From Sedimentisphaerales bacterium (lineage in GTDB: Bacteria > Planctomycetota > Phycisphaerae > Sedimentisphaerales > SM23-30), in the NCBI GenBank assembly GCA_963666285.1, contig OY762711.1: 64,000 nt of DNA; one strand, 5' to 3'. A program made the translations under genes and the position numbers. The notes below the pieces were generated by a model, which was not told the DNA's origin, searched no databases, and worked only from the letters and a program-made list of their open reading frames with translations. Below, in pieces: positions 7,855-37,592 of the stretch; the stretch's first letter is position 1, and each line of letters begins with the position of its first letter.

Positions 7855-7990
7855 AGTTCGGAAGAATAACAGGTCCAAAGACCTGATTCATTACACTTGT
7901 TGTATCATATAATATGAGGTAAGGAACAAAATTTGCAGGATACCATTTATAACCAATTATCCTTAGAGCTTTACAGCTCAAAAATAATGT

Positions 7991-10847
<2,857 letters not shown>

Positions 10848-11023
10848 ACATTATTTTTAAGCTGTGGTCATATCGCTCTAAAGATTCATCAGTTTTATAA
10901 ATGGAATTATATTTACGAAATTGTAATTTTAATAATTATGTGCAAGACACTTATATTCATATCTTTACGATATGATTCGCAAGTATTACCTACAAAAATC
11001 ATTACCTTTACCTCATATTAAAT

Positions 11024-11035
11024 TGTCAAAGAACT
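11024..11035 (-). promoter_or_regulatory. boxA-like rRNA antitermination element
   Basis: Minus strand AGTTCTTTGACA in the 23S leader, resembling the boxA consensus TGCTCTTTAACA. Confidence 0.6.
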
Positions 11036-11056
11036 TCGCTTTATTGCGAGCCGTAA

Positions 11057-11085
11057 ATTTTAACAGCTCTTATTTTCTTTGTCAA
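11057..11085 (-). promoter_or_regulatory. Sigma70 promoter for 23S-5S (proximal)
   Basis: TTGACA-17bp-TAAAAT followed by TTACGGCTCGC; A-rich upstream. Confidence 0.8.
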
Positions 11086-11144
11086 GAACCTTTTTGAAAT
11101 TTTTTATTTTTTTCGTTTCAGGTTTCTCAACTAGCGAGCCTTAT

Positions 11145-11173
11145 ATATTAAGGCCACTTCCCTTTCTCGTCAA
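11145..11173 (-). promoter_or_regulatory. Sigma70 promoter for 23S-5S (middle)
   Basis: TTGACG-17bp-TAATAT followed by ATAAGGCTCGC; A-tract upstream. Confidence 0.7.
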
Positions 11174-11247
11174 GTGTTAATTTTATTTTTTTTGAAGTTT
11201 TTTTTAACTCCTAAAGATTAACACTTTTGTTGATCAAGGGATGGAAG

Positions 11248-11275
11248 ATTGTATCGTTAATTTTATAATTGTCAA
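11248..11275 (-). promoter_or_regulatory. Sigma70 promoter for 23S-5S (distal)
   Basis: TTGACA-16bp-TACAAT with a long A-tract (UP-element-like) upstream. Confidence 0.75.
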
Positions 11276-11308
11276 CAATTAAATTTAACTTTTTTTTTCA
11301 ATCTTCAA

Positions 11309-11381
11309 TGGAGACGATCGGGATCGAACCGACGACCTTCTGGATGCAAACCAGACGCTCTCCCAGCTGAGCTACGTCCCC
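11309..11381 (-). tRNA. tRNA-Ala(TGC), CCA not encoded
   Basis: GGGGACGTAGCTCAGCTGGGAGAGCGTCTGGTT-TGC-ATCCAGAAGGTCGTCGGTTCGATCCCGATCGTCTCCA folds as a cloverleaf. Confidence 0.96.
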
Positions 11382-11437
11382 TTGAATCGCTGACACTTCA
11401 CCACTGTGACATGCAGCTCTTTATTTACTTGTTATAT

Positions 11438-11554
11438 TTAGCTCAGCTTGTCTTTTAACCATTTGAATAAAGCTGATACTAATACTATGACAAGGAAGAT
11501 GAAACCCATTGATCTAATTAAGGTTCTCATCGATGCCAATATTGTAATAAGCAT
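11438..11554 (-). CDS. Putative 38-aa single-TM small protein between the tRNAs
   Basis: Hand translation: MLITILASMRTLIRSMGFIFLVIVLVSALFKWLKDKLS-stop; GGAGA SD 7 nt before ATG; below the ORF-track cutoff. Confidence 0.6.
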   Translation of the reverse strand: MLITILASMRTLIRSMGFIFLVIVLVSALFKWLKDKLS

Positions 11555-11596
11555 TTAGCTTTCTCCGTTTTACGGTTATCTTAAGCCTGCTAAAAA

Positions 11597-11670
11597 TGGG
11601 CCCAGATGGAGTCGAACCATCGACCTCTCCGTTATCAGCGGAACGCTCTAACCAACTGAGCTATGAGCCC
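11597..11670 (-). tRNA. tRNA-Ile(GAT), CCA not encoded
   Basis: GGGCTCATAGCTCAGTTGGTTAGAGCGTTCCGCT-GAT-AACGGAGAGGTCGATGGTTCGACTCCATCTGGGCCCA folds as a cloverleaf. Confidence 0.96.
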
Positions 11671-31533: not shown

Positions 31534-31686
31534 AACACGACCTTTCAAAATAATTATTATCTTTTTCATATATCTCCGAGTTTGCAATTATAGACCGCAC
31601 GACATGTCGAAACAAGTAAATAATATGAATATTTAGTATTTAGACTAACACTTGCTATTATCCTCCTTACTCTCTTATAATAACTG

Positions 31687-31855
31687 ACTTACTCAAAATG
31701 ACCGGTTTTGCACTTTACTTTGCCGTAACAAATTATAGCACAATCTGTTACATTAATATTTAAAATTGGGTGACGTGCTGCGGCATTCCTTGCCTGATAA
31801 CAAAGACCTCACAACGAATACCTCTCAAACTGACTATCAGTCACTTTGAGTAACT
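31687..31855. mobile_element. MITE-like family A, copy 2 with terminal inverted repeats
   Basis: Ends ACTTACTCAAAATGAC and GTCACTTTGAGTAACT are inverted (14/16); homologous to 17841-17976; no ORF. Confidence 0.65.
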
Positions 31856-31912
31856 TATAATTATTTCCTAACACGTTTACATATAATCAAATTTACAGTA
31901 GAATATCTCTTT

Positions 31913-34172: not shown

Positions 34173-34727
34173 TTATAATAATTGTTCAATCCTGGAAACC
34201 AAAGATTCTGGTGATGTCCTTGGCGTAAACCGCCAAACCGGATGCCCTTGTCTATCTATCAGGAATTTAGTAAAATTCCATGGAATATCTATGCTGCCGC
34301 TACTGTTAGGCACTGCTCGCGTCAGCCATTTATATAAAGGATGAGCCCCTTCTCCGTTTACCTCTATCTTATCAAACATGGTAAAGGTTACACCGTAATT
34401 CTGCTGACAGAATTTCTTGATCTCTTCTGCGGTACCAGGCTCCTGGTTCCTGAACTGGTTACAGGGAAAACCGATTATTTCAAAACCTCTATCCTTATAT
34501 TTCTTATACAACTCTTCCAATCCACCGTATTGAGATGTATAAGCACATAAGCTGGCAGTATTTACCACCAGTACAACCTTGCCTCGATAACGGTCCAGAC
34601 TAACCTCTTCTCCGCCAAGCAAATTAGCAGAAAAGTCATACAAGGTAGTACTATCTGAGTTCTGCTCCACTCTGCTTATTTTTTCAGAAGAATTACAGCC
34701 TGAAATAAACATAACAGCTGAAAATAA
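34173..34727 (-). CDS. Glutathione peroxidase family lipoprotein (3' exon; ATG at 34712 is probably internal)
   Basis: VNTASLC, GFPCNQFRNQEPG, WNFTKFLIDR. The frame stays open and hydrophobic (LFSAV-MFISGC) up to the intron boundary. Confidence 0.88.
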   Translation of the reverse strand, partial: LFSAVMFISGCNSSEKISRVEQNSDSTTLYDFSANLLGGEEVSLDRYRGKVVLVVNTASLCAYTSQYGGLEELYKKYKDRGFEIIGFPCNQFRNQEPGTAEEIKKFCQQNYGVTFTMFDKIEVNGEGAHPLYKWLTRAVPNSSGSIDIPWNFTKFLIDRQGHPVWRFTPRTSPESLVSRIEQLL

Positions 34728-36627
34728 ATCGAGTAGGCGGGGGTATTACTACCCCAACCTCTCACACCACCCGGCAAGCCTGCTAAGCACCAAGGCGGTT
34801 CCCTATGGTCTGTTTGCCAGTTCCTGCCATCTTTCCAGCGTACTTACCAATCCTTGTTCTTTAAACCGTTGCAAATTCATAGCTTGATGAGATTGTGGTA
34901 TCGCACTTTTCCTCCAGAGACCCTTGCCGGACAACGCACCTATCCAGGCTTGATACTCATCAACACCATTTCGCCTATAAAATCTTGCTATTGTATAGAC
35001 TCGCTTCAACTGCTTGAGTTTAATCACTCGCAGTTTACGACGAACCCAACAATCCAATCCTTTTAGCTTGTGTTTACACTGAGCATAACGATAATATGTC
35101 GTCCAACCTGTTAAAGTCATGTTGATCCTGGCAATTATCTCTGAATATCTGCCCGGTTTATTACGCCGGGTAAGGCTACGTACCTTATCCTTAAAACGGC
35201 AGATACTCTTCGGGGCTATACCAAGGTTCCCGTCGCCGAAACAGGCGATAGCCAAGGAAGCTTCTTTCACTTACATGGCCAACCGCCGATTTCTCCTTAT
35301 TAACACGAAGTTTAAGTTTAGACTCAAGGAACTTTGTTGCACTTTCAAGTACCCGTTCACCTGCTCTGGTTGACTGTACATATATATTACAGTCATCGGC
35401 ATAGCGAACAAAGCGATGACCTCGTTTTCCAGTTCTCTGTCGAAATCTGTTAACAGAATATTCGCCAGTAGTGGACTTAGCGGACCACCTTGCGGTGTCC
35501 CGTCTTTACGAGGTATTACTACACCATTCTGCATTAAACCTGCATTCAAAAAGGCTCGTATTAGTTTTAACAGTCGTTTATCCTTGATATAACGAGCTAT
35601 TCGAGCCATCAATACATCGTGGTTTACACGATCAAAGAATTTCTCCAGATCCAGGTCAACTACATAAACATAGCCTCCCTTTACGTACTCACTGGCTTGA
35701 TCTATCGCCTGATGAGCACTTCGACCCGGACGAAACCCATAACTGAGTTCGCTGAATTCACGCTCCAGTATGGGGGTAAGCTTCTGTAGAATACCTTGCT
35801 GAACCATACGGTCTATGGCCGTGGGAATACCCAACTGACGTTTTCCACCGCCGGATTTGGGGATTTCCACCCCTCTTACCGGTGATGGAACATATGTACC
35901 GGCCATTAAGGATTCTATCAGTTCATCTATATGCTCGCGGCACCATGCATACATGTCATCAACGGTCATACCATCGATACCTGCTGCCCCGTTGTTAGAT
36001 ACCACTCGCACATACGCTGTTCGCAGATTGTCTTTATCGACTATCTGCTCCATAAGATGGTCGGTCAGGGGTAAGACTTCGGGATTCGCCGGGATGCAAC
36101 TACACGCCTCTAACCCGGTAGATTGAGTTCCGCTCTCTCCACCGCAGCCGAAGTTCAGGTTGTGCTGAGTTGACAGTGGTCTGTTGTCCATCGAGTCTCC
36201 TGTTATTACGTTCCTGTCCATAAGATTCAGTCCTTCGCAAATATTAAAAGGGAATATTTACTACTATGACCTCTGCTGACTTCTGTAAGGCTCCAATGCT
36301 TCTCGGACATTATAGCCTTGAAACAAATGATGTTGATACCCAACATACCTTACAGACCTCCCGGGGTAAGATTTAATACTTCCGGTCGGGCCTCGCCGGA
36401 TTTACCTTTATCGTCTCCGAATGAGTATCGGGCTTCAGAATCCATTGCTTCCTTACCCGGACGACACCGGCCTTATATCCGATTCCTGTTCGTCGAGTCC
36501 GACTTTTGCCTAAGGCTTCCTTACCACCCAGCGTCACCGCTACGCAGTTGCCTTCGACTTGCGGTTCCGCTCATCACGGCCCGCAGGGGACTTTAACCCC
36601 ATGAGCATTAAATCATGCCCGGCGCAC
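34728..36627 (-). mobile_element. Group II intron, class IIC
   Basis: 5' GTGCGCC at 36627 directly after a hairpin plus T6; domain V AACCGCC...GGTGGTGTGAGAGG with CGC triad; domain VI ending CCTACTCGAT at 34728; RT without endonuclease domain. Confidence 0.93.
34803..36191 (-). pseudogene. Group II intron reverse transcriptase/maturase, frameshifted
   Basis: GAAGIDG, RQLGIPTAIDR, SYGFRPGRS, DLEKFFD, GTPQGGPLSPLLANI. RYADD (35392-35403) lies in a shifted frame between indels at 35425-35428 and 35239-35241. Confidence 0.88.
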
Positions 36628-36655
36628 AAAAAAGCCGGACAAATATGACCGGCTT
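36628..36655 (-). terminator. Terminator-like hairpin used as the IIC intron target
   Basis: AAGCCGG-tcatatttgt-CCGGCTT plus TTTT directly before the intron 5' end. Confidence 0.75.
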
Positions 36656-36663
36656 ATAATCAA
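36628..36663 (-). CDS. Putative 5' exon of the glutathione peroxidase gene (signal peptide N-terminus)
   Basis: TTG ATT ATA AGC CGG TCA TAT TTG TCC GGC TTT TTT joins in frame with 34727; no clear SD. Confidence 0.45.
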
Positions 36664-36677
36664 TTATAATATCAAAA

Positions 36678-37592
36678 TCAACGACCACCGTACCATGTAA
36701 CAACCCTTAAAAGGTCTGGCTGAAGCATTCCAGTTTCTGTATCATAACACCATTCTGTATTTTTCGCCACTTCAGCTGCATCAATTCTATAGGTTGTTTT
36801 TGCAAGCTCCAAAGTCTTTGGAGACTGCCAACTGGTTATTTCTGCATGCCCATCAGCAAAAGCAATAGTTCCTCTCTTATTATGCCATACCGCCATATAA
36901 TCCCACCAAGAGCTGTCCTGAAATTTATTTTCTCTAGAATGAACTTGGAAAGATCCTAGAAGATAATTCTGCCCCAACGTTGACTCTTCTACAAACACCA
37001 TTTTTTCTGACGGTGTTTTAATCTGGCCGGCTTTTGTATAAGCTTTAACTCCATTATGACCACTTACAACATCTTCACCATTCATTGTTCCTGTAATCGC
37101 ATAAGAAACAAAAGCATCCATTGGAGCACTTTTCTTAAAATTCTTATCTCCCGGACAATGGTAAACATCATGGGTCTTGTTATATTTCCATAACTTACCT
37201 AATTCGATACCGAACTTACGGTAATCCAGGGCATTTGTATTATTAAATGCTGAATCACCATTTGACAATGACCTGTGATTATTAGATCCGCTGGTATCTT
37301 CAACTGTCGGTGCACATATCCAAGGGTGTAAACCGGCTGGACGCCTATCAGTCTCATTGTAAGGTAACTGGCCATTGTAACCGGAAGCCATTCCGCCAAC
37401 CAGCTGGTCTCCATTGTCGCCGCAATACATTACCCAGGATGAAATCAATGCTTTCTGGTTGCCCAAACATACGGCAGCCGTTGCCTGTTGCTTTGCTTTA
37501 TTCAAAGAAGGCATTAAAATACTTACCAATAAGGCAATAATAGAAATTACTACCAATAGCTCAATTAATGTAAAACCTTTTCTTTTTGACAT
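36678..37592 (-). CDS. Prepilin-type N-terminal cleavage protein with H-X9-DG motif (DUF1559-like)
   Basis: KGFTLIELLVVISIIALLVSILMPSL, YHCPGD, HNKRGTIAFADGH. Confidence 0.9.
   Translation of the reverse strand: MSKRKGFTLIELLVVISIIALLVSILMPSLNKAKQQATAAVCLGNQKALISSWVMYCGDNGDQLVGGMASGYNGQLPYNETDRRPAGLHPWICAPTVEDTSGSNNHRSLSNGDSAFNNTNALDYRKFGIELGKLWKYNKTHDVYHCPGDKNFKKSAPMDAFVSYAITGTMNGEDVVSGHNGVKAYTKAGQIKTPSEKMVFVEESTLGQNYLLGSFQVHSRENKFQDSSWWDYMAVWHNKRGTIAFADGHAEITSWQSPKTLELAKTTYRIDAAEVAKNTEWCYDTETGMLQPDLLRVVTWYGGR

Follow-up and report, generated by a model that had tools for sequence, protein, structure and literature searches.

We describe a class C (IIC) group II intron lying between a pilin-like gene and a glutathione peroxidase gene in 64,000 nucleotides (nt) of DNA from Sedimentisphaerales bacterium (assembly GCA_963666285.1, contig OY762711.1); this whole stretch is referred to as the window. 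The protein of the intron is encoded in two frames. Our comparisons suggest that it belongs to a lineage in which a reverse transcriptase (RT) domain and a thumb/X (maturase) domain are probably joined by programmed +1 ribosomal frameshifting. The features of the locus, including its open reading frames (ORFs) and protein lengths in amino acids (aa), are as follows.

36678..37592, minus strand: gene for a 304-aa protein with a prepilin-type N-terminal methylation domain, upstream of the intron (ORF; PF07963; TIGR02532)
36628..36655, minus strand: terminator-type hairpin and U tract, the target site of the intron; candidate 5' exon codons of the peroxidase signal (TTG 36663)
34728..36627, minus strand: class C (IIC) group II intron, 1,900 nt (ends; Rfam; genome BLAST)
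35191..36191, minus strand: ORF1, the RT domain of the intron-encoded protein, broken in the window copy
35424..35428, minus strand: private one-base loss upstream of YADD (gap against both copies in genome G017)
35238..35241, minus strand: conserved UUU_C, candidate +1 frameshift site between the RT and thumb/X domains
35195..35234, minus strand: possible 8-bp stem 3' of the slip site, weakly supported
34803..35240, minus strand: ORF2, in the +1 frame, thumb/X (maturase) domain, open to its end (PF08388)
34728..34799, minus strand: domains V (CGC triad) and VI
34173..34727, minus strand: 3' exon, glutathione peroxidase with an intact body (PF00255; homologs)

A class C intron with a broken protein gene

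The intron starts with GTGCG at 36627 and ends with CTCGAT at 34728 on the minus strand, a pair of termini common to its relatives. ORF1 starts at ATG 36191, preceded by AGGAG, and runs to a lineage-wide stop at 35193-35191; the YADD codons of the window copy occupy 35403-35392. BLAST against the genome shows this to be the sole full copy. A 99-nt 5' stub, 94% identical to the window intron and with the remainder gone, lies at G000 C1:2695228-2695326 (L152), directly after a tRNA gene terminator and in the orientation opposite to the window copy.

Group IIC introns have the end consensus 5' GUGYG and 3' AU/AC, and a CGC triad in domain V is a mark of the class. The initial annotation had placed the intron in this class, and its end motifs, its domain I-IV structure, its position after a terminator-like stem-loop and its RT type all agree. 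Rfam models match at 36370-36543 (D1-D4-3) and 36230-36315 (D1-D4-1; RF02001, RF01998), and an alignment of domain V shows a short domain with the CGC triad. The domain V/VI model RF00029 missed the window copy at E<=1 and matched five of seven other loci; pairing in the upper stem of domain V is poorer in the window copy than in relatives. Assignment of the RT to class C is based on the profile TIGR04416, which scored above cutoff for homolog P0121, and on the best match among solved structures, which for the fused sister protein P0230 is GsI-IIC (6AR1; E 2e-141, residues 49-459).

Class C introns insert after terminator hairpins (PMC8919778, PMC7306698; these two, PMC5009743, PMC5052127, PMC5769746 and PMC12584367 are cited here from part of their text). 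The same habit, noted in the initial annotation, is seen in related introns. For these, 15 other 5' junctions are listed: 13 follow a hairpin and U tract (-18 to -24 kcal/mol), one follows another intron's end and one is not a true end.

What the window copy lacks, as a class C element, is the intact protein of an autonomous intron. Its RT gene carries two frame breaks. Both are present in short-read contigs X1 and X2, possibly from the source sample, with no gaps or other letters relative to the window; these contigs, together with the second break being common to relatives, exclude sequencing error as their cause. The first break, the one-base loss before YADD, is private to the window copy and counts as real damage; an unbroken relative, P0137 (333 aa), matches the two ORF1 pieces at 95% and 90% identity. 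From its sequence, the window copy is predicted to make no working intron protein and would not be autonomous.

A lineage-wide split and a candidate +1 frameshift site

The second break has a different distribution. It is present in both full introns of G017, a genome of another genus (73% DNA identity), in G120 and G015 and in one viral contig. Among the 120 best matches to the RT half from G017, query included, 81 are split at this site, 35 are fused (~471 aa) and four are neither; an earlier and cruder classing by pattern gave 74, 36 and 10. The split proteins end just past the RT domain, the thumb/maturase domain follows in the +1 frame, and in 76 of the 78 with a full tail the stop falls at the same codon position. 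They form one clade (FastTree support 0.88 in a 43-tip subsample and 0.76 with all 81), within which core identity falls to 64%. The proteins closest to the clade are fused, with F-G-D-G in one frame at the site. A search with ORF2 found 48 stand-alone ORF2-like proteins from gene callers, several of which pair with ORF1 matches, the pairing being taken from the equal size of source records. With source names that include Phycisphaerae, Spirochaetales and Verrucomicrobiota, the split lineage appears to be widespread.

The split falls at a domain border. TIGR04416 positions 1-272 are covered by ORF1 and positions 284-351 by ORF2 (homolog P0244), and RT-only crystal constructs end at the same place (5HHL aligns to residue 324 of fused P0230). 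The X domain is the thumb of the polymerase (PMC5769746).

Both halves are under purifying selection. In the six pairs formed by four DNA copies, the 63 codons before the site have nonsynonymous divergence (pN) of 0.007-0.10 against synonymous divergence (pS) of 0.18-0.81, and for ORF2 the values are 0.04-0.21 against 0.26-0.81. The two intron copies of G017 point to recent movement, since they differ at only 7 of 1,894 bases and lie behind different terminators. We conclude from these comparisons that the second, lineage-wide break is unlikely to be damage.

DNA of the split clade was found in just three of 400 genomes of the order (G015, G017 and G120), plus the viral contig. The clade was not among the best matches in 400 genomes of the class or 400 of the phylum, nor was it found in 401 genomes of another phylum or in plasmids. 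No second split lineage was seen among representatives at 50% identity, where 12 of the 87 scorable matches were short, at scattered positions.

Where does the frame change? The last conserved frame-0 residues before the switch are GYRL-F. Beyond them the frame-0 tail varies as the wobble positions of a +1 frame would, with R/W/G and P/A/S/T swaps, and none of the 78 full tails conflicts with either of the +1-frame glycines of the motif found in fused relatives. This pattern places the switch at the Phe. That residue is present in 80 of the 81 split proteins, while 31 of the 35 fused proteins have Leu there. The next position is Q, R, P, W, a stop or L (the stop, immediately after the Phe, in three clusters): 53 of the 81 require a codon beginning with C or T, 28 have an ambiguous Arg and none requires a purine. 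On the tree it has undergone 19 residue changes and six C/T changes, with no change to a purine, compared with two to nine purine changes at each of tail positions 3 and 5-11. The distinct DNA sites all read CTG TTT CG[A/G] (5/5). Eight ORF2 calls spanning the site (one of them the L193 copy) read CF, FF or YF in the +1 frame, which means that the Phe codon UUU is kept and the preceding Leu codon varies. UUU_Ynn has been described as especially prone to +1 shifts in bacteria (PMC5009743).

We infer that this lineage probably expresses its RT-maturase through programmed +1 ribosomal frameshifting at UUU_Y, because the break is conserved (81 of 120, in one clade), both halves are selected and the slip codons are constrained to a form that permits re-pairing. 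Peptidyl-tRNA-Phe would re-pair from UUU to the overlapping UUY, and overlapping codons of this kind are what re-pairing of tRNA-Phe in the P site needs. Ribosomes would for the most part terminate 16 codons on, yielding an RT-only fragment; the minority that slip would make the full RT-maturase, whose scarcity would keep intron mobility low. We lean towards the idea that the lineage throttles its own spread in this way, with the rare transframe product active, the RNA-binding RT-only major product possibly a brake, and the slip rate tied to tRNA supply or to the stop codon. The role of the RT-only fragment as a brake is speculative.

Downstream of the site there is a possible 8-bp stem, beginning 5 nt from it and with two pairs broken in the window copy. 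Its 3' arm overlaps a near-invariant CCG UUU URA at the frame-0 stop, and the stem could explain that conservation. One G-C to C-G switch in the stem is suggested by a single protein pair, matched by equal source-record size. The stem is unsupported as an established stimulator.

Several observations weigh against programmed slippage at UUU_Y. The stem is no more stable than shuffled sequence (z -0.84 to +0.92), RNAalifold picked a different fold and the five sequences show no covariation, and no stimulator resembling a Shine–Dalgarno (SD) sequence was seen just upstream of the slip site. Only five distinct DNA sites are available and all are close kin. Over the 15-codon overlap, pN/pS favours the +1 frame in two of three pairs without the window copy, and in none of the three pairs with it. 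Tail position 12, like the position after the Phe, is without purine/pyrimidine change; in one ORF2 call, that of P0267, the upstream stretch is at odds with the pattern; P0188, whose site residue is Ile and whose tail is longer, was assigned to the split group manually; and support for the clade is moderate. In addition, G017 and G015 encode a fused class-C-like protein with the potential to act in trans.

The last point would suit a lineage that is non-autonomous, in which an old frameshift was inherited and the introns are moved by the proteins of other introns, and about 30% of bacterial group II intron proteins have been called incomplete (PMC8919778). We regard this as extremely improbable for the split lineage: purifying selection acts on both halves while synonymous sites are near saturation, no scattered stops or indels occur across the 81 clusters, and G120 (92% complete) showed the split form only.

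The conserved CCG UUU UAA/UGA at the end of ORF1 raises the possibility that the switch occurs there, also or instead, as a prfB-like slip on the stop that would put the 16-residue frame-0 tail into the protein. Tail positions 15-17 change just one, one and two times despite being +1-frame wobble positions, and a minority of prfB genes are known to use UUU_U beside a stop (PMC5009743). We nevertheless think a switch at this second site very unlikely, given three clusters whose stop directly follows the first Phe, an intervening stretch that keeps the +1-frame motif of fused relatives, and the stem, which may account for the conservation instead.

Could the two halves be made separately? The 48 stand-alone ORF2-like proteins in gene calls, and a GTG in the +1 frame of the window copy, nine codons upstream, might suggest that RT and thumb/X are initiated independently and then assembled. 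That GTG is missing in L119 and L193, a TTG alternative is missing in L118, the called ORF2 starts vary, and no ORF2 start codon is common to all five DNA sites. Separate initiation would also leave the overlapping Phe codons unexplained. For correction at the RNA level, by transcriptional slippage or editing, the run is just 3-4 T, which is short for polymerase slippage. We consider separate initiation or RNA-level correction unlikely, and programmed frameshifting remains our preferred account.

The split lineage can be compared with well-described introns and recoding sites. GsI-IIC (6AR1) and the E. rectale maturase (5HHL, 7UIM) share with it insertion after terminators, a short domain V with a CGC triad, and an RT with thumb/X and no endonuclease. 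However, theirs are single ORFs, whereas the split lineage has RT and thumb/X in two frames joined at one conserved site. The UUU_Ynn site of YopN-TyeA and the CUU_U/UUU_U sites of prfB (PMC5009743) likewise have overlapping Phe codons that allow +1 re-pairing in the P site, and some members of the split lineage have, like them, a stop as the next codon. They differ in that the split-lineage site belongs to a mobile retroelement and no SD-like stimulator is seen upstream. Influenza PA-X and the amalgaviruses use UUU_CGN (PMC5009743, PMC5052127), which resembles the UUU_CG[A/G] of all five DNA sites; those sites are read by eukaryotic ribosomes, however, and in the split lineage the codon after UUU may also be CAR, CCN, UGG or a stop.

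Miura et al. 2022 noted that some interrupted 'non-canonical' intron proteins might be completed by read-through or frameshifting (PMC8919778). In the passages of that article covered here, this is a general speculation with no named lineage, site or evidence of selection. Our search of openly accessible literature found no report of programmed frameshifting in bacterial group II intron proteins. Neither an intron nor a maturase is mentioned in the main text of PMC3711429, and the first 300,000 characters of PMC5009743 make no mention of a group II intron or maturase. The frameshift passage of PMC12584367 concerns a laboratory mutant.

If our interpretation is true, the lineage would be, within the literature searched, the first case of a bacterial group II intron controlled by recoding. 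Frameshifted intron proteins are routinely classed as pseudogenes, and a clade with a conserved UUU_Y site implies that some of them are likely functional. The lineage would offer a testable natural bacterial +1 cassette with built-in variants, in which Arg, Gln, Pro, Trp or a stop comes next, and it suggests a translational route by which a retroelement may restrain its own activity. The split falls exactly between the palm and thumb of an RT family that is used in biotechnology.

Some further copies are of note for the study of this lineage. In L118 (G017 C32:10803-13513) a short intron that starts with TTGCG, and in which no long ORF was seen, comes immediately after a full split-gene intron; a tandem junction of this type also occurs at low depth in run X2. 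An intron circle, for which a depth-3 junction in that run had been a candidate, was rejected: the letters of the junction match the tandem-intron junction in G017, and the junction most likely comes from another organism. Two copies in G015 (L120/L146 and L224, on C140 and C47) are without most of the RT region and keep the slip site and ORF2.

The peroxidase signal and the exon join

The initial annotation proposed that the intron splits the signal peptide of the peroxidase. Its description of the join held up: in a scripted removal of 34728-36627, TTG 36663 is in frame with the peroxidase ORF, giving 196 aa with a lipoprotein-like signal, Cys 23 and the lipobox ISGC. As also stated there, the annotated ATG (34712) leaves five residues ahead of the Cys, and no SD precedes the TTG. 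The TTG is the only start at a workable distance for the joined form. The five closest peroxidases (60-81% identical; single-member ENA clusters) all have lipoprotein signals with the Cys at 21-23, and several more distant family members also have such signals. In the joined form, too, a lipobox Cys follows a hydrophobic stretch, and the mean hydropathy of the signal is 1.87, compared with 1.77-2.73 in the five homologs.

The first residues of the 3' exon score 21 against the signal of P0004 and 16 against that of P0005 (0, -2 and 2 against the other three), and querying with P0004 gives an alignment that starts at its residue 10, exactly at the intron boundary. These matches indicate that the 3' end of the intron abuts the middle of an ancestral lipoprotein signal, and that the 3' exon begins inside its hydrophobic stretch. 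Peroxidase domains also occur in another arrangement, C-terminal in 450-490-aa open frames of relatives (L003, L008, L010 and L013), whose N-terminal part we take to resemble a gluconolactonase-type domain.

How special is the join? We attached the same 3' exon to the 808 other terminator-like hairpins of the genome at three offsets each, 2,424 control joins in all, with criteria that were chosen after seeing the case and a signal-peptide rule that is crude. An in-frame start at a workable distance was found in 822 and 183 pass the signal-peptide rule; 43 score at least as high as the real 5' exon against the N-termini of the five homologs, and 4 pass both tests. The join is thus unusual yet not unique.

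The hairpin is of a type (AGCCGG...CCGGCT) that occurs elsewhere in the genome. Its fold of -13.7 kcal/mol (z -1.6) is close to the median of similar genome hairpins (-14.7), and its stem starts 23 nt past the pilin stop codon. In type, strength and position it is a typical terminator, and it looks like that of the pilin-like gene, a possibility raised as a caveat in the initial annotation. A simple terminator scan overlooked it, the loop limit of the scan being 8 nt.

Two histories can account for the locus, and we divide our belief evenly between them, giving each slightly under an even chance. In one, the first residues of the signal were formerly encoded by the hairpin as well, and the intron inserted into an intact gene that is now largely disabled. 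The join keeps the frame and has the expected length, with its Cys at 23, it passes both tests as few controls do, and the mean score of the 5' exon (5.8) lies within the homolog-versus-homolog range of 0-25. Against this, among 76 other lipoprotein-like ORFs picked by the crude rule, none depends on a TTG without an SD and none has a terminator-like hairpin in its signal DNA; and two of 15 joins that use terminators of the same type score higher through motif composition alone.

In the other history, the promoter, start and roughly first ten codons of the peroxidase gene were deleted up to the T run of the pilin terminator, before or after the intron arrived, leaving a headless relic in which the in-frame join is chance. 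This would fit a hairpin that is typical as a terminator, the placement of 13 of the 15 related-intron junctions after a hairpin and U tract, and a start without an SD. It demands, however, a deletion that ended exactly in the U tract together with a join of a kind found in 4 of 2,424 controls, and no decay is visible in the body of the peroxidase.

A scan for sigma-70 promoters scored none between the pilin gene and the intron, and its total of 11 sites compares with a shuffled mean of 10.9. At 36663-36668 there is a perfect TATAAT, with no -35 box seen, 5 nt ahead of an in-frame ATA that would give a 21-residue, P0004-like signal; a lost leaderless ATG start at this position is possible.

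An intron-less allele was not found. Contigs of four runs contained no intron-skipping junction, 60 relatives and 24 other genomes of the family held no close peroxidase, the matches listed from a genome-collection scan (2 of 64 parts) were only distant peroxidase relatives, and two sequence patterns run against metagenomes for such an allele gave no matches. Record 23 of run X3, from a second sample, runs from the pilin gene through the terminator into 19 nt of the intron (to 36609), and then continues for ~970 nt outside the window sequence, the adjoining 20 letters not being in G000. It may be an insertion or a chimera.

The stronger claim of the initial annotation, that the exported peroxidase needs and gets splicing, was not borne out. 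The RT/maturase is broken by the private one-base loss, leaving no working maturase in cis; a hairpin of terminator type lies in the way; and the start is of a kind used by none of the 76 comparison ORFs. Class C introns behind terminators have been described as rarely transcribed (PMC8919778, PMC7306698). The peroxidase gene is likely silent, or expressed without export, rather than splicing-dependent, because the window copy is predicted to lack a working intron protein. Would splicing of transcripts that read through the terminator still allow export today? The ORF is intact, joining the exons restores the lipobox signal, and the ribozyme domains can for the most part be recognised. The only other intron RTs found in the genome, however, share just 33-37% identity with that of the intron, transcription must pass the hairpin, the start is weak and the RF00029 miss counts as weak evidence in the same direction, and we judge such export improbable.

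Another group II lineage is represented by two almost identical RT ORFs with 450-aa frames, at G000 C1:911273-912031 and C1:5395969-5396715, one of which has YADN in place of YADD. Elsewhere in the window, 7989-11670 contains 23S and 5S rRNA and two tRNAs, with no 16S match listed within the window, and a non-coding repeat at 31680-31870 has 42 BLAST matches in the genome.

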